64,000 nt of DNA from an uncultured Bacilli bacterium. Its GTDB lineage: Bacteria; Bacillota_I; Bacilli_A; RF39; UBA660. Location of the stretch: assembly GCA_934098705.1 (NCBI GenBank), contig CAKOPC010000003.1, forward strand, positions 5,321 through 69,320, in the 5' to 3' direction. Below the pieces are notes generated by a model, which ran no database searches, was not told the origin of the DNA, and saw only the letters and a list, made by a program, of their open reading frames with translations. Made by a program: the position numbers and the translations under genes. Positions 10,266 through 60,410 of the stretch are shown in pieces (the stretch's first letter is position 1; the number at the start of each line of letters is the position of its first letter).

Positions 10266-12041
10266 TTATTTAGATTTCTTACTATCTCTTTTACTTTCTG
10301 TTGGTGTTTTTGTTTTTGGATCATATCCTGATTTGTTATGTTCTTTAGCAATTTTAAGAGCAATAGCTGCATCTTGGATTGCTTCTTGTTTTGCTTTGTC
10401 TGTTTTATCTTTAGCCTGTACTGTTGATACTCTTGATGGTGTAACTCCAACAAACTTCTCACTGGCATCTAATCTTGATGCTAAAGTTACAATATTTTTT
10501 TGGAAGGCATTAGCATTACCATTTAAGAACGCTTCTTTTGCTTCTATTAACTGACTTGCTCTTGCAAGACCTTTCTTTTCTCCCCAAGCTTCATCTAACA
10601 TTCTTAATTTTTCACTTGTATCTTCTGTTTCATTAAACTTTTGTAGTTTTTCACCTGTCACACCGAAGGCATTAGCATAAGCAAATTTTTCTTCAAGTGT
10701 ACCAGAATCATATATGTTTTGTAATTGTTGCATTGATTTATCACTACTAAATACTGACCCATCAAGAGCACCATCAAGGGCTTTGTAATTATCCCCAGCA
10801 CTTTTAGCAGCATCTTTATGCTGAGTTGCACTTTTAATCCAAGGAAATTTGTTTTGTATTTCATCTTTTTGAGCTTCACGCCAACCTATTCCTTCGGCTT
10901 TTCTTTTGGCAACAGCAGTATTACTGCTACTAAATGCTTTACCAACATTACCAATTTTTCCTGAAAAACCAGAATTTAAAACTGCAAATGTTTGTCCTAT
11001 GGTACCTTTGTTGGCTGCTGTTACAAATGCTCCAGCTGTACCAACTGCAGTAACAAGGGATGTTTTTACAGCATTCATTGAATCTTTAAATGTTCCACCC
11101 ATATTTTTAATACCAAAGATTTCACTTATAAAGTTTGGAACTGTCTTAGCAAATACAAATGCTCCAAAATATAATAATAATTTATTAAATCCTGTAACAG
11201 AATCATTTAAAAGTCCAATAAAATATATTGCCATATTTATTCCCAATATTTTAACAAATAAATCTAAATAACAACCAATAAATTTACTAGTCCAATTATT
11301 TAAAACTTTATCATTGGGATTTATATATGATATAAAGGCTACCGGAGATAATACTCTTAAAATTAATAGTTTAAAGTTTCGTATAACAACTTCAATACAT
11401 AAAGCAGCTAATAATACACAAAGAGCAATTCCACATAAAATACTCATAAAAATATCTATTGATATTTCTTCTTCTTCTACTTTTTTTGATATATCATCAT
11501 TACCTTCTTTAGTTATTAAAAAATCACTTTCTAATACTTCATCTGGATTTTTTGATAATGATGCTACCATCTCTCTTGCAAAAGCTATTCCTGCTGTATA
11601 TTCTTTGCTACTATCTACATTAGTTTTATTATTTTGCGGATTAAACAAAGTATATAATACACTTTTACCATCACTTGGATTTAAAATAGCTTCTTCTAGT
11701 GGTGATATTACTGTATCCATAACAACTGGAAATCCTATAACTAATATTAATGATATTACAATTCTTGTTAACATTTTTCCAGTACCTGTTTGTTTATCAT
11801 TTAACTTATCTGGATCTATTAGGTATCCAAACATTGTAACAGTTATTCTAAATAGCATAAAAATTGCTATTAATGTATAAACATTTTCTATAATATTTCC
11901 TATTTCTTCATTTAGTATTTGTGAACCAGTAAGCATCTTAGTATAAGATACCATTCCATCGTATACCATAGCAACTGTTGAAAATATCCATGATAAAAAT
12001 TTTGTAAATATTTCTCCTGCATTAAATAATTTTAATATCAT
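10266..12041 (-). CDS. VirB6/TrbL-like T4SS membrane protein, paralog 3 (short loop without Cys)
   Basis: 591 aa. Same conserved N-terminal, FISYINPNDKVLNNW and GIKNMGGTFKDSMNAVKT blocks. Loop reduced to ~90 aa. Confidence 0.6.
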   Translation of the reverse strand: MILKLFNAGEIFTKFLSWIFSTVAMVYDGMVSYTKMLTGSQILNEEIGNIIENVYTLIAIFMLFRITVTMFGYLIDPDKLNDKQTGTGKMLTRIVISLILVIGFPVVMDTVISPLEEAILNPSDGKSVLYTLFNPQNNKTNVDSSKEYTAGIAFAREMVASLSKNPDEVLESDFLITKEGNDDISKKVEEEEISIDIFMSILCGIALCVLLAALCIEVVIRNFKLLILRVLSPVAFISYINPNDKVLNNWTSKFIGCYLDLFVKILGINMAIYFIGLLNDSVTGFNKLLLYFGAFVFAKTVPNFISEIFGIKNMGGTFKDSMNAVKTSLVTAVGTAGAFVTAANKGTIGQTFAVLNSGFSGKIGNVGKAFSSSNTAVAKRKAEGIGWREAQKDEIQNKFPWIKSATQHKDAAKSAGDNYKALDGALDGSVFSSDKSMQQLQNIYDSGTLEEKFAYANAFGVTGEKLQKFNETEDTSEKLRMLDEAWGEKKGLARASQLIEAKEAFLNGNANAFQKNIVTLASRLDASEKFVGVTPSRVSTVQAKDKTDKAKQEAIQDAAIALKIAKEHNKSGYDPKTKTPTESKRDSKKSK

Positions 12042-44218: not shown

Positions 44219-44464
44219 TTATTTTAATTCAAAAATTGATTTCAACACATTATAAATTACATCTACTACTATTGAATTTCCAGCCTGGTGATATAAATAA
44301 GTTTCTGCACATACCCTTTTTGCTCTATTATATTCTTCATCACTAAACCTTATAAGTCTCCAAGCCTCTTTGGATGTTAATTTCCTAATTATACAAATAA
44401 AAATGGAAATTTTAAAGTACAATTTCTTAGACTTTATATCTTTGACAGAATTAATGAAAAACAT
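44219..44464 (-). pseudogene. C-terminal fragment of a C5 cytosine DNA methyltransferase (motifs IX and X only)
   Basis: RKLTSKEAWRLIRFSDEEY (motif IX-like, LTxxExxRLxGFxD) and QAGNSIVVDVI (motif X, GNSV). The N-terminal catalytic motifs are absent. Confidence 0.55.
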
Positions 44465-44510
44465 AAATTTTCATTAGATTTGTCAAAAAATATTAACTTA
44501 TTTTAAATTT

Positions 44511-44534
44511 GCGTACCTAAAAGTGTACCTAAAA
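44511..44534. repeat. Tandem pair of GTACCTAAAA repeats, outer left flank of island
   Basis: GTACCTAAAA x2 in direct orientation; the same motif recurs at 44705-44726 and 58170-58189. Confidence 0.6.
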
Positions 44535-44566
44535 TTACTTAATAGTTCTAAAATTCTTTAATATAA

Positions 44567-44600
44567 ACAAAAATGAGAGCTTTCGCTCTCTTCAGAGGGC
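44567..44600. repeat. Left direct repeat (att-like): ACAAAAATGAGAGC-tttc-GCTCTCTTCAGAGGGC with internal hairpin
   Basis: Matches 58238-58280 (ACAAAAATGAGAGCG-atataagttaat-CGCTCTCTTCAGGGGG) in both arms; only the loop differs. Confidence 0.5.
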
Positions 44601-44704
44601 TCGCCCTTTTATTCTTTGTATGTGTTAATTCCTTTTAATTTCGGCCTTTTATGGTCTTTTTGTTTTAGCAACAACCTTATTAATTTGGTATTTATTAGTG
44701 TGTT

Positions 44705-44726
44705 GGTACCTAAATGGTACCTAAAA
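44705..44726. repeat. Tandem pair of GGTACCTAAA repeats inside the left end of the island
   Basis: GGTACCTAAAtGGTACCTAAAA. Confidence 0.6.
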
Positions 44727-44764
44727 TCACAATAATTGTAATTAGATAATGATATTAAAAATTT

Positions 44765-46477
44765 CTAATCCCAAGTATTATTTTTCATACAAAAATCACA
44801 TGAATCATCCAAAAATATATTTGAATTATCTGTCGCAAAATTATTTGATAATCCCGTCATTAACAAGCCACATCCAAATAATTCTAAAGGATCATTGCCA
44901 ATTATTTTAATTGTTTTATCATAATCCCAATATAAATCAGTAGAATCAGCAAATAAATAACAATATTTGTAATCATTTTTTTTAAATTCTTCGTACTTTT
45001 TCTTTCCCTTAATTTTATAGTTTCCTCTTTCTCCAAAGAATTTATTAATATATGCTTGTCCATAAAAGAATGATTCTAATTCTTTTTCATTAGGAATACA
45101 TCTTTCTTCATTAAAAATTATTTCAACAATTCTTTTACAATTTATTACTGATATATTGCAATTATTATGTAGCCTTTTTATTAATGCTTTCTTAATTGAA
45201 TCAATACTATTTCCTGCTATTAACACTTCAGCATCTCTTACATTAAATTTATCATTTATTAATCTTAAATAGCCATCATAATAATGGTATTTTTTATTAT
45301 TAAATCCATTGGCTTCGAAAATACTACCGTTTTCTCCATAGAAGCAGTTATAAATACCATCTTTATATTTCATTAAAAATTCATGATTAGGATCTTCAAC
45401 TTTAATTATATTATTCAATACTCTATATAAATCTTTAAGTAAGCCATCTTGCTCAATGGCATATGAGTAATCTAAATCATTTTGATAAATTTTATGTGCT
45501 GGCTCTGTTCTAAGTTTTCTAATTTGATTGAGTTTTTCATAAGACATCATATTAAATAAGTCATATTGACCAAAATATGTTTTAAATAATCTTAAACCCC
45601 TGAACTCTTCTTTTTTTAGATCCTCTAAAGTAAACTCGTTATTATTTTTCATAGTTTCATATTCTTCTCTTATTTTCTTTTTTAAATCTTTTCCATTAAT
45701 ATTATCTAAAAAGATTTTTGCTAATTCCATCATAAAATTAAATCTATTCATTTTTGTGGGATAAAATAATGGCATGTAAAATTGTAATTCAGAAGCATCA
45801 TATTCATTATTAAACAACTTAAAATTATATTTACTTTCAAATATATAATTAACTATTCTGATTCCCTCTAAAAGAACATCATAAATACTTTCTTCATCTA
45901 TATCTAAGAACTCTCCCAAAAATAAGTTTTTAATATTGTATGAATGCATTTCATATCTTCTACCATCATCTTCAATCATAAATGGTTGTAATATTAACTG
46001 GGATTGTTCAGACAAATCTATCAAATCAACCATTAACATACCAATAACAATTTTATTTTCTTCTAAATCATGACATAAACATAAATCTTTTATATATACA
46101 TCTAATTTAGAATTTTCTGTTGAACAAACGTATCCTCTATAACCACTCCAATGAAAATGGAATTTAGGATTATTCAAAAACAAATGCATAATTTCCTCAT
46201 CGAAATATATAATATTCAATGCAAAATAATCTTTAATTAACTCTTTTTCAAAACGATTTAACCCTATTCTTTCAATTTCTTTTTTATAATTTTTATAAAA
46301 TTTTTTATCTAAGAAATAATAATCAGGTAATTCTTTATTTGTATATATGTATTTATACTTTAAAAGATAATTCTTTATATTTTCACTAACATTTAATCTG
46401 CATGCAAATCCACGGCCGTCAATAAAATTCTTACAAACAGCTAAAACCTGTTCATTATCTAATCTCTGCATTTTCAT
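44765..46477 (-). CDS. Large hypothetical protein (570 aa), no recognizable motifs; candidate restriction/defence cargo
   Basis: Own promoter and terminator. Sits between the R-M operon and the island end, next to the methyltransferase fragment. Confidence 0.4.
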   Translation of the reverse strand: MKMQRLDNEQVLAVCKNFIDGRGFACRLNVSENIKNYLLKYKYIYTNKELPDYYFLDKKFYKNYKKEIERIGLNRFEKELIKDYFALNIIYFDEEIMHLFLNNPKFHFHWSGYRGYVCSTENSKLDVYIKDLCLCHDLEENKIVIGMLMVDLIDLSEQSQLILQPFMIEDDGRRYEMHSYNIKNLFLGEFLDIDEESIYDVLLEGIRIVNYIFESKYNFKLFNNEYDASELQFYMPLFYPTKMNRFNFMMELAKIFLDNINGKDLKKKIREEYETMKNNNEFTLEDLKKEEFRGLRLFKTYFGQYDLFNMMSYEKLNQIRKLRTEPAHKIYQNDLDYSYAIEQDGLLKDLYRVLNNIIKVEDPNHEFLMKYKDGIYNCFYGENGSIFEANGFNNKKYHYYDGYLRLINDKFNVRDAEVLIAGNSIDSIKKALIKRLHNNCNISVINCKRIVEIIFNEERCIPNEKELESFFYGQAYINKFFGERGNYKIKGKKKYEEFKKNDYKYCYLFADSTDLYWDYDKTIKIIGNDPLELFGCGLLMTGLSNNFATDNSNIFLDDSCDFCMKNNTWD

Positions 46478-46544
46478 ATTATTCCCCCTTAACTTATTAT
46501 TTGATTATACCATATATTCCAATTTATTTTTTTACAAAACAATT

Positions 46545-46580
46545 AGAAATTAAAAAAAGCCACTTTATTAGGTGGCATCA
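46545..46580 (-). terminator. Intrinsic terminator after the methyltransferase gene
   Basis: GCCACC-taataaa-GTGGC hairpin followed by a U-run on the minus-strand RNA. Confidence 0.4.
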
Positions 46581-47522
46581 TTTATTATCAAGGCTATTAA
46601 CATCTTCAAAAAATTCATTAATTGTTTTTACTCTATTGTATTCTTTCTTCAAATTGGTTTGAGACATATTTTCAAGATGTTTTTTAAAATAAACTTGAGA
46701 TTGCTTATCATTATCTATCATTATGCAATGTCTTCCCTCTTCTATACAAATTCTTCCTGTAGTTCCACTTCCAGCGAAAAAATCTAAAACTACTGCTCCT
46801 GGATATGATAATGATTTAACAAATCTTCGTATTATTTCAAGTGGCTTTTGAGTAGGATGCCCAACTCTCTCCAATGAATTACCATTTAGTCTTCCAATTT
46901 CCCATACATTAGTTGGATTCTTACCTTTTATAACATTTTCAGGAATCAATCTTTTATCTTTCAATGCATTTTTTAGTTCTTCAGGAGAATATTTTACTCT
47001 TACTGAATCTAAATCAAAATAATATTTATCAGTTTTTACCAACCATATTACTTCTTCATGCCTATTTGCAAAATACCTATGAGCAGACATACCATTCTTA
47101 TAATACCATATAATTGTATTTACTAATTTCCATTTTGTGTTATGCCTGCAATGATATATTATTTCAGTTAAATCTCCACTTCTTTCATTTCTAAATTGTG
47201 TTCCACCAAAGATAACCAAACTACCACTTTTTGATAAAACCCTATATGCTTCATCCAACCAAGTTCCAGCCCATTCCATATAATTCTCATATGTATCCCA
47301 ATCTGCTAAATCAAGATTATATGGTGGATCAATCAAGATTAACTGAATTGACTCATCAGGAATCTTTTTTAATGCTTTAACACAATCTTCATTAAATAGC
47401 AAAGATATTGATTTTTCTGGCATTTTAAAATCTACACTTGTTTTATTTTTTAAATTATCTTTATTTTTCTTCAAAATTGATCTTAGTGCAGAGTTATTAT
47501 GTGATTTATTATGTATAGCCAT
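46578..47522 (-). CDS. Beta-class amino (N6-adenine or N4-cytosine) DNA methyltransferase
   Basis: Motif IV DPPYN precedes motif I VLDFFAGSGTTG (beta-class order). 314 aa. Abuts the restriction gene. Confidence 0.8.
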   Translation of the reverse strand: MAIHNKSHNNSALRSILKKNKDNLKNKTSVDFKMPEKSISLLFNEDCVKALKKIPDESIQLILIDPPYNLDLADWDTYENYMEWAGTWLDEAYRVLSKSGSLVIFGGTQFRNERSGDLTEIIYHCRHNTKWKLVNTIIWYYKNGMSAHRYFANRHEEVIWLVKTDKYYFDLDSVRVKYSPEELKNALKDKRLIPENVIKGKNPTNVWEIGRLNGNSLERVGHPTQKPLEIIRRFVKSLSYPGAVVLDFFAGSGTTGRICIEEGRHCIMIDNDKQSQVYFKKHLENMSQTNLKKEYNRVKTINEFFEDVNSLDNK

Positions 47523-50192
47523 TTACAAAACCTCCACTTCTAATTTATTTTTCATTAAATCAAGACCAAGCTTTTCCTTTAAATATTCTACGTAATTACC
47601 ATTATCATTAATATAACTATCTGCTAGTTGTTTCATAGTAACATTTTCAGCATCGTCAAATATTATATCACTAAATAGCAATTTTTGTACTTCAATATCT
47701 GATCTTGTCGTATTTATAAATCCCATTATTTCAAGCAATGATACTATAAATGGAACCCTATGTTTAGATGCTTCGGCAGATGGAATTTCTATTCCCCGCG
47801 TTTCACAATAATGGATAGTTCTTTGACTTTCAAAAAACAAAGAATAACAATTTGCTTTAGAAATATTGTGCTTTCTACTATCAAAATATATAAATTGGAA
47901 CATTTGCTTTACTGCATCCATATTCAACATTAAATTAATAAATTGTTTTTTCTTAGTATAATCTTGATTTAAATACTCTTTTATTGGATTTACAAAATCA
48001 GATAAGTTCATTTCCCAACTAATTCCTTTTTCTTTATCCTTAAAACTTAAATCTATATGATTAATTAAATCTTTAAGTAACTCGTAAAGTTTTTCCCCAT
48101 TTTCTGTTAACTCTATAGTTTTTGTCTCATGACCAAGTTTTCTATCGTCAACAATTAACCCCATTCCCATCATTCCCTGAATTTTATATTTTGTTTGTCT
48201 TTGGAATTTTGCTAACGATTCATCCTTATCTAAGTTCCCTCTAAGTCTTATATACTTTTCATTCATATAACCTGTTGTATCATTTTCATATAATGATTTC
48301 AATATATATAATATATGTCCAAAATGTAATCCTTGAGGATAATGATATCCATTTTCTGTTACTTCCCCAATTTCCCTTAAAAATTTCATCCAACTACCAA
48401 AAGAAGAAATATATTTACCACTCTTGTATTTGCCATACATGTTTATATCATCTATACTTGGCTTTTTCTTTATATCAGTCATAACATCATAATAAGCAAC
48501 AATTAAATCATCCTTATTAACTTCATGATCCATTGCATCTTGTAAATCAAGAATTTCTTGAACTTCATCATCAAATTGAACTTCGCATTTTGGATTATAT
48601 TCATATATATTCTTTTCAAAAGCATTTGTACCTTCTTTATTTTTTGTTGTTACTTTTGTAGATAAATACTGTCTGACATAATTTGCTCGCTGATAATTAC
48701 TTATAAAATCCAAAATAATTACTTTATCTTTATTAGATGATATTCTTAATCCCCTACCTAGCTGTTGCATAAATACAGTTTTTGATTCAGTAGGTCTTAG
48801 AAACAGTAATGCTCTAACATTAGGAACATCAATACCTTCATTGAAAATATCAACGGTGAATGCAACTGCAATTTCATTATTTTTAAATGCTTTAATTAAT
48901 TCAGCCTTAGTTTCTGTAGTATTCGTTCCAGATGTTATTGCAACAGCACTTACACCTCTTTCATTAAACAATTTTGCCATTGCCTCTGCATGTCGTATTG
49001 TTACACAAAAGCCTATAGCTTTATCTCCATTACAAAACTGTTGATATTTTTCAAAAATCATTTCATTTCTAGCATTAATAATTAAGTGTCTCTCTAAATC
49101 GCTTTCATTATACTTGATACCATTTCTTCTGATATTTGTATAATCTATATTATCTTTTAATCCATGATATTCATATCCTACAAGGAAACCTCTATCTATA
49201 GCATCATTAATATCATATTCGCATACTTTTTGATAATCAAATAAAGATAGTATGTCTTTTTTATCAGTTCTATCTGGAGTGGCAGTAATTCCTAAAAAGA
49301 ATTTAGGTGTAAAATAATCTAATATTTTTCTATATGTTTTTGCTTCCCCATGATGAACTTCATCAACTATAATATAATCAAAGTATTCTTTACTAAATGA
49401 ATTTAATGTTTCATCTAAACAGAGAGAATCTTTAGATGCAAATAAAATTCTACAATCCCTAACATGTTCTTTTGTTTCTCCTGTTAATAAACCTAATATT
49501 TCATTTGGCCAAACATCTTCAAATGCATTTTTTGATTGTGTCAAAATATCTAATCTATGAACAATAAATAAAAACTTTGCATTAGGATTTTCCAAATAAT
49601 AATTATAGGCATCCATAGCACTTAAATAAGTTTTTCCTGTCCCTGTTGGCATAATAACTAAGCCTTTTGTCCAGCCTAAGTCTCTGCAATTTTTTAATTG
49701 AGGTAATACTTCTAACTGAATTGGATTCGGATCTATTTTTACATCTCCCAATAATTCTGGAGCATACTTTTTTAATGTCAAATTAATTTCATCAAAAATT
49801 CTCTGTCTCCACATAGGATCTTTCAATTGATTATATGAATATCTTCTTAATGTCCATCCATGAAATAATATTTCATTTTGTCGAAATAAATTATCATCAA
49901 ATTGTGCAAATGGAATAATGCCTTCAGCATGATATGTTTCACCATTTACTTCAAATGCAATTTTATTTCCCTCATCAGTTATTATCCCAAAATCAATTTG
50001 TCTTGCATGTCCTTCAGAATCAATAAATGGATACTGGGGAACTACTAATGTCATTTTTTCATTTCCTAAAATTGGAAACAAAAATTCTTTAACAAACAAT
50101 TTCTCACTCTCTGATATTATCTTGTTTTTATATATTTCTAAATACTCTTCACAAGTAATACTGCTTTTGTCTAACAATAAATTACAATTCAT
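47523..50192 (-). CDS. Restriction endonuclease subunit: N-terminal DUF559/Vsr-like PD-(D/E)xK nuclease fused to SF2 DEAH helicase (Type III Res-like) with long C-terminal domain
   Basis: KIAFEVNGETYH...GWTLRRYSYNQL (DUF559-type), Walker A VIMPTGTGKTY, DEAH box IIVDEVHH, motif VI QQLGRGLR. 889 aa. Confidence 0.65.
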   Translation of the reverse strand: MNCNLLLDKSSITCEEYLEIYKNKIISESEKLFVKEFLFPILGNEKMTLVVPQYPFIDSEGHARQIDFGIITDEGNKIAFEVNGETYHAEGIIPFAQFDDNLFRQNEILFHGWTLRRYSYNQLKDPMWRQRIFDEINLTLKKYAPELLGDVKIDPNPIQLEVLPQLKNCRDLGWTKGLVIMPTGTGKTYLSAMDAYNYYLENPNAKFLFIVHRLDILTQSKNAFEDVWPNEILGLLTGETKEHVRDCRILFASKDSLCLDETLNSFSKEYFDYIIVDEVHHGEAKTYRKILDYFTPKFFLGITATPDRTDKKDILSLFDYQKVCEYDINDAIDRGFLVGYEYHGLKDNIDYTNIRRNGIKYNESDLERHLIINARNEMIFEKYQQFCNGDKAIGFCVTIRHAEAMAKLFNERGVSAVAITSGTNTTETKAELIKAFKNNEIAVAFTVDIFNEGIDVPNVRALLFLRPTESKTVFMQQLGRGLRISSNKDKVIILDFISNYQRANYVRQYLSTKVTTKNKEGTNAFEKNIYEYNPKCEVQFDDEVQEILDLQDAMDHEVNKDDLIVAYYDVMTDIKKKPSIDDINMYGKYKSGKYISSFGSWMKFLREIGEVTENGYHYPQGLHFGHILYILKSLYENDTTGYMNEKYIRLRGNLDKDESLAKFQRQTKYKIQGMMGMGLIVDDRKLGHETKTIELTENGEKLYELLKDLINHIDLSFKDKEKGISWEMNLSDFVNPIKEYLNQDYTKKKQFINLMLNMDAVKQMFQFIYFDSRKHNISKANCYSLFFESQRTIHYCETRGIEIPSAEASKHRVPFIVSLLEIMGFINTTRSDIEVQKLLFSDIIFDDAENVTMKQLADSYINDNGNYVEYLKEKLGLDLMKNKLEVEVL

Positions 50193-50406
50193 TTTTATCC
50201 CCCTTATCTACTGAATATTCAACTATATCATCTAACTTGCAATTGAATACTTCACATATTTTCATTAATGTTTCCATTCTTACCATTTCATCTTTTCCCA
50301 TTTTAGCCATTTCGTTTGTTGTAATATCAGCTATTTCACATAATTTAGACTTATTCATGTTATTATCTATCAATAGCTTCCACAACTTTTTATAACTAAC
50401 TTTCAT
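50182..50406 (-). CDS. Small XRE-type HTH protein, probable R-M controller (C-protein)
   Basis: 74 aa HTH (LIDNNMNKSKLCEIADITTNEMAKMGKD). Its 3' end overlaps the restriction gene start by 11 nt. Confidence 0.5.
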   Translation of the reverse strand: MKVSYKKLWKLLIDNNMNKSKLCEIADITTNEMAKMGKDEMVRMETLMKICEVFNCKLDDIVEYSVDKGDKNEL

Positions 50407-51051: not shown

Positions 51052-51420
51052 CTATTTACTCTCTATCATTTTTAATAATTCTTCTTTTGTTATTATCCCC
51101 TGTTCTGCTTCCTTATGATGCATAGGACATAATGTTATAAGATTTGTACTATCTAATCTTTTAGAATAATCTTCATCTATTGATACTATATGATGTACTT
51201 GTAAGTCTTTATAGTTAAACATAAATGGTGCTCCCTCATATCCATTTATACATGCCTGACATAAATATTTATCTCTTTTCTTTACTTCTTCTCTTTTTTG
51301 TTTCCATTCATATGTACTTCTAAATCTATCACTTTTACTACTCTTTTTATACCTATATGGTCTTTTACATACGATATTAAAGTCATGTATCTTTCCACAC
51401 ACACTACAAGTTTTTAACAT
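51052..51420 (-). CDS. HNH endonuclease
   Basis: CxxC...HHIVSIDED...N...CPMHH zinc-finger HNH pattern. Confidence 0.65.
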   Translation of the reverse strand: MLKTCSVCGKIHDFNIVCKRPYRYKKSSKSDRFRSTYEWKQKREEVKKRDKYLCQACINGYEGAPFMFNYKDLQVHHIVSIDEDYSKRLDSTNLITLCPMHHKEAEQGIITKEELLKMIESK

Positions 51421-51862
51421 TATTTAATAGTTTCCTATTCTTTTGTTCTATTTGTTTATTATGCTTAAGAAATGCTTTAATATCGTTTTCTACAAATTCT
51501 GGTAGATTTCCCTCATCTAACCACATAAGAGTTTTAAAACAGCTATTGCTAGCATGAGAATCTGTTAATTCTTCAACACCTTTTTTAAAGTATTCACTTT
51601 CTTTCATTTTATCTATGATTGAAATAATATACTTTTTATTTATTTCTTTGCATTTATCTTTTAATTGTGAAATTGTTGGAAAGTATTTTGATTCTGATAC
51701 TATTTCTTTTATAGCATTATTTAATGTTGAATAAGATACATCACTAAAATATTCAAACCAGCTTTCTAATTGTTCTTGATCCGTATTCTTGAAATAGCAA
51801 GCATTTAGATATTTCATACACTTAATAAAAGCAAAATGGGTCATTTTCATTTTCTTCTCCAT
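51404..51862 (-). CDS. Phage-type hypothetical protein (replication-module associated)
   Basis: 152 aa, overlaps both neighbours, in the replication gene block. Confidence 0.35.
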   Translation of the reverse strand: MEKKMKMTHFAFIKCMKYLNACYFKNTDQEQLESWFEYFSDVSYSTLNNAIKEIVSESKYFPTISQLKDKCKEINKKYIISIIDKMKESEYFKKGVEELTDSHASNSCFKTLMWLDEGNLPEFVENDIKAFLKHNKQIEQKNRKLLNNVKNL

Positions 51863-52661
51863 TTTGTCTTGCTTCTATCATTTCTTCTAATTCTTTCATA
51901 GAAATATCATTTAATGTTTTCTTCTTTACTGGTTGATTATAATAGTTTTCAAACTTATCTCCAAACAAAGTATATGGGTTTAAATGTACTACCATTTTAG
52001 TATCTTTCCATTCATAAAATTTCTTATCAATAACTATTTGAAAATCAAGTGTTTTATATCCTTTTTCTATCCAATTATTAACAAGACTTTTTATCTTTTC
52101 ATTTTCCCAATTGTATGAAGAATTAATTTTCTTATTTAAATAATCAATAACATCTTTTACGACAAAATCGTTACCAGACAAGATAGTTACATCTTCTCTC
52201 TTCTCCACTATATTATTTTTTTCTTCTCTTTTATTTTCTAGACTATTCTTTTCTTTACTTATCTTATCTATACTATTCTTGGTATCCATTTGGTTTCCAT
52301 CTGGTATACCATTGGTGTCCAACATAATATATTCATTATTATCAGCTATATCTAACCTACTAAATTCATTTTGAAAAATAGTAGGTCTATATCTATCATT
52401 TCTAACAGTATTATTTATTTTCCAATGTTTTATGGCGATCACATCAGAATCAAATTTATAAATAAAAGATTTGTCTATTAAAGATTGTAAATCTTCATTT
52501 GTAGCACCAACGAGCTTCATATAAGATCTATAGTTTTTAGATAGCCCATCATCATCTGCTAACATACCCATATGAAAATATAGACATTGAGCTTCAGCAG
52601 ATAGTTCTAAAAAGTCATCACTTGTTGTAACAACCTTATCAAACATTCTTTTTTGAGCCAC
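51822..52661 (-). CDS. Phage replisome-organizer-like / replication initiation protein
   Basis: N-terminal MAQKRMFDKVVTTSDDFLELSAEAQCLYFHMGMLADDDG (phage replisome organizer N-terminal-like); C-terminal TLFGDKFENYY block. Confidence 0.4.
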   Translation of the reverse strand: MAQKRMFDKVVTTSDDFLELSAEAQCLYFHMGMLADDDGLSKNYRSYMKLVGATNEDLQSLIDKSFIYKFDSDVIAIKHWKINNTVRNDRYRPTIFQNEFSRLDIADNNEYIMLDTNGIPDGNQMDTKNSIDKISKEKNSLENKREEKNNIVEKREDVTILSGNDFVVKDVIDYLNKKINSSYNWENEKIKSLVNNWIEKGYKTLDFQIVIDKKFYEWKDTKMVVHLNPYTLFGDKFENYYNQPVKKKTLNDISMKELEEMIEARQNGEENENDPFCFY

Positions 52662-53199: not shown

Positions 53200-53871
53200 A
53201 TGAATAGTAAAAATACTGATCCTAAAATATGCTTTGCTACTAATCTTAAAAAATACATGGAATTAAGAAATGTTAGTAGAAAGAAATTATCTGAAGATAT
53301 TAATATTAAATATTCAACTATATGCGAATGGTTAAAAGGTACGATGTTACCACGTGCAGATAAAATGGAAATAGTCGCAAATTACTTTAATACGACTTCA
53401 TCTAGATTATTAGAAGATCCAAATGCTGAATTATTGGTATATAAGTATCCTTTTGTAACTAAAATACCTGATGGATATACATTGGAACAAGCATCTGACG
53501 AATTTTTCTCTGGTTGGGGTGTTATTCAACATGTAAAACAAGTACCTAACCACTATGGATTAACAATTACTCATGAATGTAATCCTATGCAACCTCGTTA
53601 TGCTAAAGGTGAACCTGTTTCTTTTAAACTTACAAGCTATGTTTCTGATTGTGATTGCGATTATTTAATTAGAAGAAAAGGCCATGATGCAGAAATAGTA
53701 AGAATCTATGAAGACCAAGAGCCTCCTTTTATAATTGAAGATGATGAAAATGATGATCGTGAGATTATATATTATGTTATGATTCCTGTCTATAATGAAG
53801 AAAACAATTATGAACCATATCATACATTTAACTTAAGTGCTGATTATGAAATAATTGGAAAAGCAGAATAA
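53200..53871 (+). CDS. CI-like repressor (XRE HTH N-terminus plus C-terminal oligomerization/peptidase-like domain)
   Basis: HTH LKKYMELRNVSRKKLSEDINIKYSTICEWLKG. 223 aa. Divergent from the replication genes, upstream of the integrase. Confidence 0.5.
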   Translation: MNSKNTDPKICFATNLKKYMELRNVSRKKLSEDINIKYSTICEWLKGTMLPRADKMEIVANYFNTTSSRLLEDPNAELLVYKYPFVTKIPDGYTLEQASDEFFSGWGVIQHVKQVPNHYGLTITHECNPMQPRYAKGEPVSFKLTSYVSDCDCDYLIRRKGHDAEIVRIYEDQEPPFIIEDDENDDREIIYYVMIPVYNEENNYEPYHTFNLSADYEIIGKAE

Positions 53872-54015: not shown

Positions 54016-55127
54016 ATGGGAGTATATAAAGCTAAAGATGGCAAAACTAAAGATGGTCGTATCTGGTTCTTTAAGTTAAGATATCAAGATATGGATGGTA
54101 GAAACAAACAATACAAATCAGGAAAATATGCTACTAAAAAAGAAGCAGAAGAAGCTGAACTTGAATTTAGATTAAAAATACATAGACATGAAAATATGGA
54201 TAAAATAACCTTAGATGAAATGATTGATATATTTATTGAGAATAGAACTTCTACTATTGAGGTTAAACCTAATACTCTATATAATTACGGAAATAAAAAA
54301 ACTCATTTAAAAAGTTTATTAAATATTAAATTAAAAGATTTTAATATCAATCACTATGATAATTGGAAAAAGCAAATGAATGAAACTAATATCTCAACAC
54401 GATATAAAAATGATATATTAAAATTTCTAAAATCAGTATTAAACTTTGCTATGACTTGGTATGATTTTAATCTTAATAAAGTTTATAATAAAATGACTAA
54501 GTTTAGTAACGCTTCTGATATACCAAAAGAAATGATGTATTTTACATATGATCAATGGAAACAATTTATTTCTGTTGAAACTAATTTACAAAGTAAAGTT
54601 ATGTTTGAAATATTATATTATTGTGGATTAAGAAAAGGTGAACTTAGAGGATTAACTTGGAGAAATGTTGATCTTGTTAATAAAACCTTATCCGTTAAGA
54701 AACATATCACAGATCGTGGTAGTTCGGTTAAAGAGTTCCAATTCTCCACTCCAAAGACTAAAAGTAGCATAGAACCCTACCACTTAATAAAGTTCTCTTA
54801 AACGACCTTAAAATGCTCAAAAATGAGGTATCTAAAGAGTATGGATTTAATGATGATTACTTTGTTATTGGCGATGCTTTCCCTGTTGCAAGTAATACTA
54901 TTACATCAAGAAAAAATCGTAACTGCAAATTAGCAGATGTACCTCAAATTAGGATCCATGACTTCAGACATTCTTGTGCATCTCTAATTGTTAATAATGG
55001 TGCTAATATAACTGTAGTAGCTAAATATCTAGGTCACACTAAAATAGAAGAAACTTTAAACACCTACACGCATCTTTTTAACTCTGCTTTAAATGAAGTA
55101 GTAGATTTAATTGATAAGTTAGAGTAA
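54016..55127 (+). pseudogene. Tyrosine recombinase/phage integrase, frameshifted near 54770-54815
   Basis: N-terminal SAM-like and core-binding region in ORF 54016..54801. Catalytic region continues in ORF 54813..55127 (HDFRHSCAS...GHTKIEETLNTYTH). The linking segment ...LPLNKVLLNDLKMLKNE is readable only in a shifted frame. Confidence 0.7.
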
Positions 55128-55163: not shown

Positions 55164-56401
55164 AGTAGACATTAATAAAAAAGAGGGACTACAAAATATG
55201 ATAAAATACATTTCCGAAAGGAGGTGTATTTTTATTATGGCAACAAAAGGACAAAAGTTTAAAACATTTACAAATGAAGAAAGAACTGAAATTGTAAGCA
55301 AATACATGTCAGGCAAATATTCATATGCAATTTTAGCAAAAGAATATAACATAAGTTGGAAAACTATAGAAAGCATGGTTAGAAAATTCAAAAAAACTGG
55401 ACTAACAATTAAAGACAAAAAAGGTAGAAATAATCAATCACATTTAACTAAAGAAGATTGGAAAGAAAGATATGAAATATTAAAAAAATACCAGGCCTTC
55501 CTCAAGGCACAACGAGAGAAAAAGTAACATTTATAAATTTGTATAGAAATAATTATAAACTTACTAACATGTGTGCCGTACTTAATATAAGTCCTAAAAC
55601 TTATTATAAGTATAGAAACAAGGAAGATCCTGATTATTATGATTATTTGATAATTAAAGAAATATTTGATGATTCTAAAGGTACATATGGATATCGTAGG
55701 ATTGTTGAATGCCTACTCCAAAAATATGGTGTAGTTATGAATGGAAAGAAGGTATTGAGAATAATGAAAAAATATAATCTAATGGCTGAATATATAAGAA
55801 AAGCTAAAATTAAACATAAGAACGAAAAAATTGAAGATAATGTTAAACCTAATTTATTAAATAGAAATTTCACTACTGATAATTCTAATAAAGTTTGGGA
55901 TACAGATGTAACGTATTTAATATTTAAAGGTTCAAGAGCTTATTTATCTACAATAATTGATTTATATGATAGACATGTAGTTTCATATGTAATATCAAAA
56001 AGAAATAATTTAAAGTTAGTTATGGATACTTTAAATAAAGCTATATCAAAAGAAAAAGATGTACATGGTTTAATCATTCACAGTGATCAAGGATTCCAAT
56101 ATACATCTTATGAGTACAAAGCTATATGTGAATCGAATGGAATACAAATTTCCATGTCACGAAAAGGAACGCCAATTGATGATTCTCCAATAGAAAGTTG
56201 GCATTCACTCCTTAAGAAAGAAACTCTGTACAACAATAATATTACATCTTTACAAGAATATATTCAACTTGTAGAAGAATGGATATTATTTTACAATACA
56301 ACTAGACTAAAGTCAAAAATTAAGAAAAAGAGAAAAAATTATACAAAAAGAGAAAAATAATTTTCTCTTTTTAATAACCCTCTTTTTTATTAATGTCTAC
56401 T
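55164..56401 (+). mobile_element. IS3-family insertion sequence (orfA 55237..55527, orfB 55539..56360) with perfect 24-bp terminal inverted repeats
   Basis: IRL AGTAGACATTAATAAAAAAGAGGG at 55164-55187 equals the reverse complement of 56378-56401. OrfA is an HTH protein. OrfB carries a DDE rve core (WDTDVTYL...IHSDQGFQYTS...E). Confidence 0.8.
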
Positions 56402-56432: not shown

Positions 56433-57314
56433 TTAATTTTTATAATTTTGATAATTTGAATATTTTAATTGTTTATCTTTATATTCTTTATATACATCAG
56501 TATGGTTACTAATAAACTTGCTAACATTATCACGATTACATGGATTTTGTTTTTTTATCATCTTATAATATGGTTTTATGCTTTTATCTTTTAATATTCG
56601 TATTAATCCTCTTATTCGATTTGAAACAGCTTCTTTTCCTAAAAATGGTATCATACCCTTATTATAGAATCTTTGGTAAGAATATATTGATTTATTCTCG
56701 CAAAAACTCTTTGGAATAAAAATAATAGCCATATTAGATTCAAAATCAAATGGTAATTTTAAAATTTGATTACTTACCCATTTATGATTAGAGTATGACC
56801 AATATTTTCGTTTAAGCAAAACATCTTGTAAGGGTATATTATATTTCATACATTCTTCTTGTGTATATAATACCAATTCTTCTAATATAAGATTTGATAT
56901 AAAATCAGATAATTTATCAACTCCCAATTTTTCAATCATAACTTCTGCATCAAATATATCTCCTATCATACCAGTTTTAATAGCACTTGAGTCCTTAATC
57001 AAATCAAATATTTTATTACCTAGATGTTCTCCACCAGATAAACCATTTGGTTTATTTCTTGAATAACCTAATCTTGTTTCATTTATTTCACTAAAATTCT
57101 TAGTATATAAATACCCCATTTTATAATCATTATTGATTGCTAATTTTAGTAAATGTGAAAAGTACTGTTGTACAATTAAGCAACATCTTTTCCCCATTTC
57201 ACTCTTATCCATATGCATCATCATAGGATCAATCCATACAGTATTATCTTTTGCCAATTCTATATTAACAAAACCAGCATTATCTGGTATATTATATTTT
57301 GTAAATAATTTCAT
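56433..57314 (-). CDS. Hypothetical protein (293 aa), island cargo of unknown function
   Basis: No recognizable motifs; own RBS (GGAGGAACAAATATG). Confidence 0.35.
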   Translation of the reverse strand: MKLFTKYNIPDNAGFVNIELAKDNTVWIDPMMMHMDKSEMGKRCCLIVQQYFSHLLKLAINNDYKMGYLYTKNFSEINETRLGYSRNKPNGLSGGEHLGNKIFDLIKDSSAIKTGMIGDIFDAEVMIEKLGVDKLSDFISNLILEELVLYTQEECMKYNIPLQDVLLKRKYWSYSNHKWVSNQILKLPFDFESNMAIIFIPKSFCENKSIYSYQRFYNKGMIPFLGKEAVSNRIRGLIRILKDKSIKPYYKMIKKQNPCNRDNVSKFISNHTDVYKEYKDKQLKYSNYQNYKN

Positions 57315-57377
57315 ATTTGTTCCTCCTTCGCTGAATTATTTATATAATAGTTGTGGCTACAAATATTTATATATTAT

Positions 57378-57551
57378 CTACTTTTCTTTACGTACACCTT
57401 TAAATTTACCACCAGAAGTTTTAACATCCATAAATCTTCCATTTGTTGTATTTCTTTTTACAAATAGATTTGTTTTTGTATTTAAAACTTGTGATCGTCC
57501 ACATACAGCTCCTTTTCTGCAATTATCACCATTAGGTTTGTTTACTGCCAT
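57378..57551 (-). CDS. Small basic protein (57 aa), absent from the ORF track
   Basis: Strong RBS AGAAAGGAGGAC 9 nt upstream of ATG. Product MAVNKPNGDNCRKGAVCGRSQVLNTKTNLFVKRNTTNGRFMDVKTSGGKFKGVRKEK. Confidence 0.35.
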   Translation of the reverse strand: MAVNKPNGDNCRKGAVCGRSQVLNTKTNLFVKRNTTNGRFMDVKTSGGKFKGVRKEK

Positions 57552-58169
57552 ATAAAAAGTCCTCCTTTCTTAAATACTCAGAGAACTTGTAAACATAATT
57601 CCATAAATAATCTTTTTTTAATTCATAGGTTGAAATTTGATCAAAGTATGTTATAATAGTTATAGAACATAGGTTGTAATTAGTTCTCTTGTTCAATCTT
57701 GAATACAAATTTGCTAGTGTATTCTTGTATTTCTTGTAGATGTAGCCGTCAACTACATTTGCTATAAGGTATTTGCTCTATTGCTCGCAAATGCTTTTTT
57801 TTTGCATTTTTAGCCTTTTTGAGACATTTTTATAGCATTCTACTGCTGTAACTTATAGCAATTACATTATAGCATAATAAGCCTGAAAAAACAACTGATG
57901 AGACGTTTTTAAGCAAACAAACGAACGCTATTATTAACAGGAAATTTATTATTTATTTTTTTTAGATTTATATCATATGAATTAAACAAAAAAAGAAACA
58001 ACATTACAGTTTCATTTTTTTAATATTTTAGATAAATTTTATTCCAACATAATAATAATTTATTAAATGATTAACGCTATTTCAACTTATACTTTCAATG
58101 TTTTTTTAAAATACACAACCTATCTCATTGATTATTTTTATATCAAAAAGATTCATTATTTATTTAAGT

Positions 58170-58189
58170 GGTACCTAATTGGTACCTAA
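58170..58189. repeat. Tandem pair of GGTACCTAAT repeats inside the right end of the island
   Basis: GGTACCTAATtGGTACCTAAT. Confidence 0.6.
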
Positions 58190-58237
58190 TCCTATTTTTA
58201 GAAATTTATCAAAGCACCAAATCCCTTATATTTCCTA

Positions 58238-58280
58238 ACAAAAATGAGAGCGATATAAGTTAATCGCTCTCTTCAGGGGG
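58238..58280. repeat. Right direct repeat (att-like) with GAGAGCG/CGCTCTC hairpin
   Basis: See left repeat at 44567-44600. Confidence 0.5.
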
Positions 58281-58403: not shown

Positions 58404-60410
58404 TTACCCCTCTTTTATGGTATCAATAATTTTCTTTTTTAAATTGTCATATTTTTCATCTTTATTATTTAAAAATTCAAGTGAATCTTTTTTTGCTTGT
58501 AAAAGGATTTTATAATCCTCTTTTATGTTAGCAACTTTAAATGTCATGTCTCCACTTTGTTTTACTCCAAATAAATCGCCATGTCCTCTTAATTTAAAGT
58601 CCTCTTCACTTATTTCAAAACCATCATTTGTTTTTGTCATAACATCAAGTCTTGCTGTATCGCTATCACTTATTAAAATACATGTACTTTGCATGTCATT
58701 TCTTCCAACTCTTCCTCTTAACTGATGAAGTGTTGAAAGTCCAAATCTATTAGCATCAAATATTACTATCATCGTTGTATTAGGAACATCAACTCCAACT
58801 TCTATAACAGTTGTACTTATTAATATTTGTGTTTTATTGTTAACGAACCTCTCCATTATTTTATCTTTATCTTGTTGATGTAATTTACCATGTATTATAT
58901 CTATATTATATTTACTTCCAAAAGCAAGATTCATTTTATCTTTTAGTTCAGTAACTGTTGTTAAATCAGTTGTTTCACTTTCTTCAATTAAAGGTGCTAT
59001 AACGTATATTTGGTGGTTTTCTTTTAATTCATCATACATCATTTTTAAAACATCTTTCATCTCTTTAGTTGTTTTTAAATAAGTCTTTATTTTTTTTCGG
59101 CCACTTGGTAATGTTTTAATTGTTGATATATCCATATCTCCATATATAGTTAAGGCATATGTTCTTGGAATTGGGGTTGCACTCATATAAAGTATATCTG
59201 GATACTCTCCTTTATTTTGTAAACTTGTTCTTTGAAGCACACCAAATCTATGTTGTTCATCTGTTATAACAAGTCCTAAGTTTTTGTAACTAACACCTTC
59301 TTGTATAAGGGCATGTGTTCCTATTATTATATCAATACTTCCTTCTTCTAGCATTTTATGTATGTCATCTTTTTCTTTTTTCTTCATACTTCCAGTAAGT
59401 AGTCCTACTTTGATGTTAATGTCTTTAAATAACTTACATATATTTTCATAGTGCTGATTTGCAAGTATTTCAGTCGGGGCCATCAAAGCACTTGTATAAC
59501 CGCTTAAATAGGTTGCATACATAGCAAGTATGGCAATTATTGTTTTACCACTTCCAACATCACCTTGTAGTAATCTATTCATCCTGTATGGTGAATTTAA
59601 ATCATTTAATATTTCAAAAAGCACTTTATTTTGATCCTCTGTTAATTTAAATGGCAATTTTGCTATAAAATTATCAAGTGCCTCATAATTTATATCTTTA
59701 ACAGTACCACTTTGTTTTGTTTTATATTTTAGTTTAACATAATTTATTTTTGTCATGAAAGAAAATAATTCTTCATATTTTAATCTTATTAAAGCTTCTT
59801 TTAACTTTTCATATGATGGCGGATTATGTACGATATTAAGTGCGGTTTTCTTATTTAGAAAGTTATATTTACAAGTTATATAATCAGGAATATAATCATC
59901 TATCTTGTTGCCGTACTGCATTAATGCTTGATTTATAAATACACTTAAATTTTTAGAATTTAGTGATGTTGTTGAGTGGTATACTGCTTCTATCTTCTCA
60001 CCCTTTGGTAAAAGCCCCATTCTAATTTCTGATGCTATTATTGTATTTTTTTCCTTTTCGTATTTACCAATTACAATTATTTCTTTACCAACCTCTAAAT
60101 CTTTTTTTAAGTATGCTCTATTAAATATGGAAACACCAACTATCATACCATCACTTGTTACAAGTCTAACATTCATTTTATTTAAGTTGTTCTTAAGTCT
60201 TATTAATATGGGAGTACAGTCAACCTTTCCATCTACAATACATTTTTCTTGCTCGTTATAATTTCTTAAATCAGTTCTTTTAATTAAATCATATCTATAT
60301 GGATAATGAGTTACCAAATCATCTACTGTTTTTATATCTAATTTTTGAAGTAACATTAAACTTTTTGGTCCTACACCTTTTACTAACTTTACATCTATCA
60401 AGTAAATCAC
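58404..60410 (-). CDS. recG: ATP-dependent DNA helicase RecG
   Basis: 668 aa. N-terminal wedge/OB domain, Walker A LLQGDVGSGKT, DEQH box (ITDEQHRFG), helicase C motifs. Confidence 0.9.
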   Translation of the reverse strand: MIYLIDVKLVKGVGPKSLMLLQKLDIKTVDDLVTHYPYRYDLIKRTDLRNYNEQEKCIVDGKVDCTPILIRLKNNLNKMNVRLVTSDGMIVGVSIFNRAYLKKDLEVGKEIIVIGKYEKEKNTIIASEIRMGLLPKGEKIEAVYHSTTSLNSKNLSVFINQALMQYGNKIDDYIPDYITCKYNFLNKKTALNIVHNPPSYEKLKEALIRLKYEELFSFMTKINYVKLKYKTKQSGTVKDINYEALDNFIAKLPFKLTEDQNKVLFEILNDLNSPYRMNRLLQGDVGSGKTIIAILAMYATYLSGYTSALMAPTEILANQHYENICKLFKDINIKVGLLTGSMKKKEKDDIHKMLEEGSIDIIIGTHALIQEGVSYKNLGLVITDEQHRFGVLQRTSLQNKGEYPDILYMSATPIPRTYALTIYGDMDISTIKTLPSGRKKIKTYLKTTKEMKDVLKMMYDELKENHQIYVIAPLIEESETTDLTTVTELKDKMNLAFGSKYNIDIIHGKLHQQDKDKIMERFVNNKTQILISTTVIEVGVDVPNTTMIVIFDANRFGLSTLHQLRGRVGRNDMQSTCILISDSDTARLDVMTKTNDGFEISEEDFKLRGHGDLFGVKQSGDMTFKVANIKEDYKILLQAKKDSLEFLNNKDEKYDNLKKKIIDTIKEG

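Follow-up and report, generated by a model that had tools for sequence, protein, structure and literature searches.

What is the function of a 570-residue protein that matches no entry in the domain libraries, lies at the edge of a putative mobile island and is followed by a fragment of a DNA methyltransferase gene? The question is raised by a gene on the reverse strand of a 64,000-nucleotide stretch of contig CAKOPC010000003.1, from an uncultured Bacilli bacterium; we refer to the whole stretch as the window, and to the gene and its product as the target. An initial annotation had described the product as an orphan without detectable motifs, and had read it either as a relic restriction endonuclease or as a defence gene with an anti-phage, abortive-infection (Abi)-like role. 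We lean towards a form of the latter: a stand-alone, mobile-element-borne anti-phage protein of the abortive-infection type, with a predicted HEPN-like ribonuclease (RNase) domain as its effector.

The window has a G+C content of about 25%, and the open reading frame (ORF) that the initial annotation had called is present in full in the ORF list (44765–46477, reverse strand, with its stop codon at 44765–44767). It encodes a complete 570-residue member of a conserved family that has no name. We compared it with two close copies, one in a metagenome-assembled genome (MAG) of a Bacilli bacterium from the Hadza gut (locus L012) and one in locus L018. The target differs from the former by 59 synonymous and 29 non-synonymous codons and from the latter by 34 and 31, respectively, and all family-invariant residues are retained in the window copy. 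As synonymous changes outnumber non-synonymous ones, the gene appears to be under purifying selection rather than decaying, and we take the ORF to be real and intact.

The target cannot be called an orphan, because a search of 5.8 billion proteins returned about 90 homologous clusters at 50–95% identity, and a wider superfamily lies beyond them. Almost all members of the close family are 564–572 residues long, and the nearest cluster (95% identity) holds 201 sequences. The homologous clusters carry neither a Pfam domain nor an informative name, and the genome matches are MAGs of uncultured gut Bacilli, Bacillales, and Clostridia. The wider superfamily comprises 216 clusters at E ≤ 1e-3 in a profile search of 1.84 billion representatives. 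Few of these relatives are full-length (540–553 residues, ~30% identity); most are ~400–430 residues long and match profile positions ~80–356 alone. Among the sampled relatives, the shared core gave no significant Pfam, PADLOC, or NCBIfam match. One of them, P0173, has a REC receiver domain as its N-terminal extension, ahead of the conserved core. When the superfamily alignment was used as the query of a second, word-indexed search for homologs, nothing beyond the close family came back. Plasmids yielded one distant relative, WP_180575543.1 of Agrobacterium vitis (NZ_AP023275.1; L024 6632–7858). RefSeq labels this protein an 'AAA family ATPase'; by eye it has no Walker A motif, and it matches no ATPase model, so the label is probably a misannotation.

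Single-sequence scans of the target found no match in Pfam, NCBIfam, PADLOC, or PHROGs, and none among PDB sequences, where phmmer and profile hmmsearch returned chance matches alone (E about 1). To this extent the earlier statement that the protein has no detectable motifs holds. It fails on the alignments, which reveal an invariant R-x4-H motif. Across 41 superfamily sequences with 18–60% identity to the query, R323 and H328, within the segment LRTEPAH, form the sole invariant columns, and the same two columns alone are invariant in the core-domain alignment. The motif R323-T-E-P-A-H328 is encoded at 45494–45511 on the reverse strand, as established from the translation and alignments A1, A3, and A4. 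In relatives it takes the form [IV]R+xR[QSN]xPAH, the position after the arginine being polar (T, Q, S, or N). The residues N210, P240, T241, F248, N259, and Q343 are near-invariant in the superfamily, and N210, T241, K254, N259, and Q343 are the conserved polar residues of the helical domain described below. Judged by sequence, LRTEPAH corresponds to the R-x4-6H signature of HEPN RNases, including the polar residue that is expected to follow the arginine.

Structure prediction, which the initial annotation had suggested as a check, divided the target into four parts. The full-length AlphaFold2 model, computed on the family alignment, has a predicted local distance difference test score (pLDDT) of 85 and a predicted template modelling score (pTM) of 0.65. 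Residues 1–85 (46223–46477; pLDDT about 90) form a small helical N-terminal domain that is variable across the superfamily and is replaced in relatives by other N-termini, REC among them. Its weak BFVD matches to small DNA-binding proteins suggest that it is possibly winged-helix-like. Residues 89–190 (45908–46213) form an alpha/beta domain that is present superfamily-wide, as delimited by secondary structure and by the profile matches at positions 80–356. Its near-invariant residues are F92, P104, G115, and G188 alone, with D151 as the sole frequent acid, and no acidic/lysine triad is conserved in it across the superfamily. Residues 198–375 (45353–45886) form an all-helical, HEPN-like domain, which contains the motif and which the domain model and Foldseek point to as the predicted RNase effector. 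A disordered loop at residues 389–400 leads to the C-terminal alpha/beta domain (residues 405–570; 44768–45265), which is found in the ~550–570-residue clade alone and is missing from the ~420-residue relatives. Foldseek found no structural match to this last domain when the full-length model was searched against PDB and BFVD, and we infer that it may serve as a sensor or a regulatory module. All four parts are encoded on the reverse strand. ClpS- and L7/L12-like matches of the full-length model cover ~40 residues and were judged to be chance. The 550–570-residue clade also has a strictly conserved carboxy-terminus, N-x-W-D (residues 567–570; 44768–44779, reverse strand), in which N567, W569, and D570 are invariant even in the ~30%-identical relative P0092. 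Such conservation is unusual for a C-terminus, and it suggests that the free carboxylate end has a function.

We modelled the core domain, residues 190–372, alone on an alignment that included distant relatives. The resulting AlphaFold model is all-helical, with a pLDDT of 92.6 and a pTM of 0.87. In the numbering of this model, helix 122–135 ends at R134 (R323 of the target), H139 (H328) lies in the next loop, and a long helix (149–172) follows; short helices stand between the second and third long helices. HEPN domains likewise have the arginine at a helix end and the histidine in the loop after it, and often carry inserted helices between helices 2 and 3 (PMC3710099). As far as predicted secondary structure and topology alone can tell, the core thus has the helix topology by which HEPN domains are recognized (PMC3710099). 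When the core domain was compared with 350,542 PDB chains using Foldseek, ranks 1–13 were all HEPN toxins. The top matches comprise HepT of the HepT/MntA system (7bxo, 5yep, 6m6u, 6m6w), the HEPN toxin of 7ae6, 7ae2, and 7ae9, and AF0298 (2hsb); HEPN protein 4nqf and Csm6 (5yjc, 6tug) follow at lower ranks. The suggested check therefore yields a helical domain whose best matches are HEPN toxins, at weak E-values.

The gene travels as a unit. Positions 44549–46517 of the window, a span that begins shortly before the –10 box and ends shortly after the terminators, are 93% identical to L012; outside this span the flanks are unrelated to L012 and the neighbouring genes differ. The expression-signal region occupies 46484–46517, the latter position being the 5' edge of the segment common to L012. 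By direct reading of the reverse strand it contains an extended –10 element (TGgTATAAT, 46512–46504) and a ribosome-binding site (AAGGGGG, 46490–46484) six bases before the ATG. The conserved 3' flank (44549–44764, reverse strand) consists of a GGTACC-N5-GGTACC hairpin (44705–44724) followed by terminator-like hairpins (about 44575–44610, one of them at 44590–44575, reverse strand), and the same 3' element lies downstream of the gene in both L012 and L018. A further terminator-like hairpin with a T-run (46576–46559, reverse strand) follows the stop codon of the upstream methyltransferase gene. Gene, –10 box, ribosome-binding site, and terminators together make up a ~2 kb single-gene cassette. 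The earlier claim that the gene has its own promoter and terminator is borne out by the extended –10 element, the ribosome-binding site, and the flanking hairpins, but not by the promoter scan as a whole, which stayed at chance level (57 sites found versus 55 expected). The promoter assignment therefore rests on the single extended –10 element together with conservation of the cassette.

What lies around the cassette differs even among its closest copies. In L012, an 837-residue C5 methyltransferase and a 410-residue protein are encoded directly upstream, and a reverse transcriptase–SLATT_5 pair (L012 3811–6018) and an 85-residue integrase relic lie further upstream. In L018, a 566-residue protein and two N6/N4 methyltransferases precede the cassette, and an AAA ATPase and an S8 peptidase follow it. 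All three of these closest copies (window, L012, L018) have the cassette directly downstream of methyltransferase or restriction–modification (RM) genes and in the same orientation. Neither of the unassigned upstream proteins is related to the target: the 410-residue protein was rejected as a paralogue by hhalign (probability 0.2%), and the 566-residue protein gave no blastp or hmmsearch match.

The GGTACC-N5-GGTACC hairpin of the 3' flank recurs elsewhere. Such hairpins occur in the window at 44705–44724, 44512–44532, and 58170–58189, in L012 at 11754–11773, and in L018 at ~6051. The exact sequence GGTACCTAA has four matches in the 64 kb window, all within GGTACC-N5-GGTACC hairpin pairs. Each hairpin lies near a similar terminator module (AACAAAAATGAGAGC...GCTCTCTTCAGGGGG), one after the target and one after recG. 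These hairpins could be attachment (att) or recombination sites, or a shared terminator element.

Across the family, we compared twelve distinct neighbourhoods, including those of the window, L012, and L018. Homologs of the target are found in a variable island beside recG with NERD, Fic, and type III RM genes (L001–4), some variants of which (L002) carry an SLFN-type helicase, a reverse transcriptase, and SIR2 and MazG-like genes; with Bro-N and type III RM (L005–8); with a C5 methyltransferase and the Eco47II endonuclease (L009–11 and L015, with ASCH and a resolvase in L009–11); with a HerA-like ATPase and a 973-residue methyltransferase (L013/14); with a prophage endolysin and a helix-turn-helix (HTH) gene (L016); with a REase_MTES_1575 protein and a large serine recombinase (L017); with SLFN_AlbA_2, IS110, Fic/M78, and an integrase (L019/20); and with type I RM, DUF3800, and DpnD-PcfM (L021/22). 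RM or other defence genes occur within a few kb in 11 of the 12 contexts and RM genes in 9, with no RM gene adjoining the homolog in L016 and L019. No neighbour is constant across the twelve. In every RM-bearing context the RM system already has its own endonuclease candidate, and in many contexts resolvase, serine recombinase, integrase, or prophage genes adjoin. More distant relatives occur in similar company. The full-length 546-residue relative P0091 (~31% identity) lies between a TIR-like gene and RnlA/RnlB, beside two large serine recombinases (L028 1774–10528), and a 459-residue relative is found in a prophage, adjoining a resolvase. The contexts of two ~420-residue relatives (L025, L026) are too short to inform. 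None of the family members has an MNT gene nearby.

In one subclade the neighbourhood has features of its own. A conserved membrane protein of 411–424 residues, with a weak DUF6688 match, precedes the target homolog (L001–L004 8728–9963; L013 8668–9942; L019 6701–7942), and in two loci a 302-residue protein of no known family follows it after a 4-nt gap (L013 11714–12622; L019 9714–10622). Both proteins are unrelated to the target, and the 302-residue protein of L019 was rejected as a paralogue by hhalign (probability 0.2%). The membrane protein, the homolog, and the 302-residue protein may constitute a multi-gene variant of the system.

The defence-island and mobile context, the invariant R-x4-H motif in a helical domain, and the HEPN toxins as best structural matches all support an anti-phage, Abi-like role. 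Under this reading, a constitutively expressible protein would be carried as a ~2 kb cassette in the accessory or defence end of integrative elements of gut Bacilli. Its effector would be the HEPN-like helical domain (residues ~198–375). Here R323-x4-H328 and the conserved polar residues N210, T241, K254, N259, and Q343 would form an RNase site that needs no metal ion and that, as other HEPN enzymes do, probably takes the second subunit of a dimer to be complete. Until a phage-derived trigger is sensed, the other three domains (N-terminal helical, superfamily-wide alpha/beta, and clade-specific C-terminal alpha/beta) would keep the RNase off. Once active, the enzyme would cleave tRNA, rRNA, or mRNA, so that translation stops and the infection is aborted. 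RNase activity, dimerisation, trigger, target RNA, and anti-phage activity are inferred, whereas the family and superfamily, the motif, the helical fold with the motif at a helix end, the cassette, the genomic context, and purifying selection are results of the analysis.

Several results weigh against this interpretation. The core-domain Foldseek matches are weak (E 0.13–1.5, template modelling (TM) score 0.3–0.46, root-mean-square deviation ~11 Å), and since neither the E-values nor the TM-scores are individually significant, the HEPN ranking is a consistent pointer and not proof. Searched with the full-length model, neither PDB nor BFVD yielded a Foldseek match below E 1. Profile hmmsearch against PDB gave no HEPN match, and a Pfam search with 30 core sequences gave a single sub-threshold match, to HEPN_Cthe2314 (E 0.037). 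The PADLOC comparison that had been proposed along with structure prediction returned no matching model; in PADLOC-DB 2.0, neither the target nor 10 distant relatives matched any family. The acidic Ex3[KR] motif of HEPN helix 2 is not clearly present: K254 is 85% basic, E251 is conserved in the 570-residue family alone, and there is no superfamily-wide acidic column in helix 2. This feature is optional in HEPN domains (PMC3710099). No antitoxin or inhibitor gene is evident beside the target, no homolog was found in isolated phage genomes (tblastn, 50,697 records, E 1e-3), and the defence-island context is guilt by association. Membership of the HEPN superfamily, for which the motif and the predicted helix topology speak and a significant profile or structure match is lacking, is nonetheless probable.

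Immediately upstream of the target, on the same strand, lies an operon that the initial annotation did not mention (46578–50406, reverse strand), whose genes abut or overlap. It encodes a 74-residue HTH_26 regulator (50182–50406), an 889-residue protein (47523–50192) with an N-terminal nuclease-like region, a superfamily 2 (SF2) helicase, and a C-terminal winged-helix-like region, and an intact 314-residue N6/N4 DNA methyltransferase (46578–47522; PF01555, 3e-57). The 889-residue protein matches ResIII (6e-38), a type IV restriction endonuclease model of PADLOC (1e-74), and phrog_16. From these sequence matches, the operon looks intact and RM-like, comprising a controller protein and an R subunit that depends on ATP. 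We treat it as separate from the target because the terminator at 46576–46559 stands between them.

Further upstream, the window contains phage-type HNH and DnaD-like genes (51052–52661), a cI-like HTH gene (53200–53871), a tyrosine integrase split into two ORFs (54016–54801 and 54813–55127), an IS3-type transposase pair (55198–55527 and 55539–56360), two ORFs without a family match (56433–57314 on the reverse strand and 57133–57555 on the forward strand), and recG (58404–60410, reverse strand). Just beyond the target, positions 44486–44599 resemble the 3' flank of recG in L001, and a similar hairpin-plus-terminator module lies at 58157–58275, just 3' of the window's own recG. A search for att direct repeats found imperfect similarity alone, over ~35–100 bp between 44.5–44.7 kb and 58.16–58.28 kb; its local alignment score of 39, against a shuffle maximum of 32, is suggestive and not conclusive. 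No tRNA gene is present in the window. Rfam detected no RNA family in the window or around the target, and thus gives no evidence for a type III-like RNA antitoxin. The arrangement fits a decayed, satellite-like integrative element of ~13.6 kb that entered the genome 3' of recG and holds the target at its integrase-distal end; since the repeat is imperfect, these boundaries are provisional. The split integrase, the insertion sequence, the phage-type replication module, and the recG-flank-like sequence make the proposed position of the target at the edge of a mobile island plausible.

The methyltransferase fragment downstream of the target is as the initial annotation had described it. An 81-residue ORF (44219–44464, reverse strand) retains C5-methyltransferase motifs IX–X alone, matching PF00145 at profile positions 275–323 of 324 (E 7e-7) and PADLOC MTase_II (4e-10). 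No other piece of a C5 methyltransferase was found in the window, the other end of the island included, using tblastn with full-length C5 methyltransferases. The relic lies beyond both the end of the cassette and the recG-flank-like sequence, and so seems to be no part of the island and no former partner of the target. An imperfect 19-bp inverted repeat (TTGACAAATCTAATGAAAA / TTTTCATTAATTCTGTCAA; 44442–44486) overlaps the start of the relic ORF. It may mark the truncation junction, as it lies ~50 bp upstream of the point where C5 homology begins (residue 26, ~44389).

These surroundings bear on what else the target might be. If the target were a type II restriction enzyme, relic or orphan, or else a methyl-dependent type IV enzyme, for which no methyltransferase is required, this would fit the lack of detectable similarity that is common among restriction enzymes, the methyltransferase genes adjoining the target in several contexts, and the C5 relic downstream. 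We consider a DNA endonuclease of either kind highly improbable. The target shows no PD-(D/E)xK, HNH, GIY-YIG, or PLD fold or profile match, and its alpha/beta domain has no acidic/lysine triad conserved across the superfamily. The family also sits beside complete RM systems with endonucleases of their own (Eco47II, type I HsdR, type III Res), and there is no cognate methyltransferase that varies together with it: the neighbouring ones are of different classes or absent. The relic, moreover, lies past the cassette end. With no nuclease fold or motif and no constant methyltransferase partner, the restriction-enzyme reading of the initial annotation is not upheld. Its accompanying argument, that an endonuclease without its cognate methyltransferase would be toxic, is moot because an intact methyltransferase operon lies next door and the C5 relic is apparently outside the island.

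Two other explanations differ in the trigger or in the purpose of the protein. In one, the effector is the same as in the reading we favour and the trigger logic differs: the target would guard or back up restriction as a latent RNase, like PrrC with EcoprrI, firing once the RM system next to it has been disabled by an anti-restriction protein of a phage. The 9 of 12 contexts with RM genes within a few kb, the position of the three closest copies directly behind methyltransferase or RM genes in the same orientation, and the tight linkage of many HEPN families to RM systems (PMC3710099) speak in its favour, and a variant of this kind is conceivable because the cassette stands so often behind RM operons. 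The adjoining RM types are unrelated, however (I, II C5, II N6/N4, and III), so no specific RM protein partner is conserved. In addition, the target carries a –10 box of its own, with a terminator between it and the methyltransferase gene upstream; L016 and L019 lack an adjoining RM gene; and the P-loop NTPase domain of PrrC/RloC has no counterpart in the protein. We regard the guard model as quite unlikely. We find it just as doubtful that the target has no anti-phage role and is an addiction or maintenance toxin of the mobile element, or a non-catalytic, ligand- or nucleic-acid-binding HEPN-like regulator of MtlR type. Members are always on mobile elements, often adjoining a recombinase or at an island end; the N-terminal domain is possibly winged-helix-like, from weak matches; and one relative carries a REC receiver domain. 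Yet the R-x4-H motif, which non-catalytic HEPN domains typically lose (PMC3710099), is the sole invariant feature here, no adjoining antitoxin gene is conserved, and the neighbours are defence genes and not replication or partition genes.

Returning to the predicted HEPN-like RNase defence protein, the target family is a new family within a sizeable unannotated superfamily, and would represent a new architecture within the known HEPN-type defence and toxin proteins. In a bolder form of this reading, which we hold to be unlikely on balance, the target would be the founding member of a widespread HEPN-like RNase immune superfamily (216 representative clusters, from Bacillota to Alphaproteobacteria) with a new alpha/beta core and exchangeable sensors (winged-helix-like, REC, and C-terminal alpha/beta with N-x-W-D). 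The 570-residue form would then be a promoter–gene–hairpin cassette that inserts preferentially behind RM operons as a type-independent back-up of restriction. The family is common in human and animal gut Bacilli and, if the anti-phage role is confirmed, would add to the known defence families one that Pfam, NCBIfam, PHROGs, and PADLOC do not detect. It would also provide a HEPN protein of several domains whose RNase is gated by sensing domains of unknown fold, and so bear on the least understood aspect of HEPN immunity, namely the trigger and the restraint of the enzyme where there is no antitoxin. With the cassette found repeatedly behind RM operons, cooperation between restriction and abortive infection becomes a concrete hypothesis. 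Our analysis further corrects two likely annotation errors, the reading of such genes as orphan restriction enzymes and the 'AAA family ATPase' label on a relative without a P-loop. At ~2 kb and with its own promoter, the cassette is small enough for direct cloning and testing.

Among known systems, PrrC and RloC have HEPN-type catalytic R and H residues, as predicted for the target, lie at RM-linked loci, and act as suicidal RNases that back up restriction (PMC3710099). Both carry an ABC/P-loop NTPase at the N-terminus and work with a fixed type Ic hsd partner, whereas the target has no P-loop or Walker A motif (by a regular-expression search of the window protein), no ATPase Pfam match, and varied RM neighbours. 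AbiD/AbiF (Abi_2) of lactococci and other Abi HEPN proteins are, like the target, encoded by single genes in low-GC Firmicutes; they are plasmid- or prophage-borne and have an R-x4-H motif. The target matches no Abi_2, Abi, or HEPN model in Pfam or PADLOC, and differs in length and architecture. The HepT toxins of the HepT/MntA type VII toxin–antitoxin system (5yep, 7bxo, 7ae6) are the best structural matches of the core domain, weak as these are, and carry their R-x4-H motif at the end of helix 3, as does the target. They are ~130–145 residues long and paired with an MNT nucleotidyltransferase antitoxin, whereas the core of the target spans ~180 residues with helical inserts.

The closest functional parallels are single-gene HEPN defences of prophages that have been characterised by experiment. 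Tha-1, which is tail-activated and encoded by Staphylococcus aureus prophages (PMC11087260), is, like the target, a single gene on a Firmicute mobile element. Both combine an uncharacterised sensor region with a HEPN or HEPN-like domain bearing R-x4-H (R265/H270 in Tha-1), and they share the structural neighbours 5yep (HepT) and 5yjc (Csm6) (PMC11087260). Tha-1 has 301 residues and a C-terminal HEPN domain, whereas in the 570-residue target the HEPN-like domain is central and two extra alpha/beta domains are present. No sequence homology to Tha-1 or Tha-2 was found at BLAST level (tblastn of the target against 50,697 phage records, a collection that should include 80alpha, at E 1e-3), and no Ith-like inhibitor gene is evident. 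HepS (HEPN Solo) of the Salmonella prophage Gifsy-1 is an anticodon nuclease with R100/H105 that is activated by a tail-tip protein (PMC13043305). It is a constitutive, single-protein HEPN effector of abortive infection, encoded in a prophage accessory region and carrying the canonical R-x4-6H motif (PMC13043305). HepS is shorter than 250 residues, consists of a HEPN domain only, and forms a tetramer, whereas the target has four predicted domains and comes from a different phylum. By analogy, the target would work in the manner of Tha-1 and HepS, as a single-gene HEPN defence carried on a mobile element.

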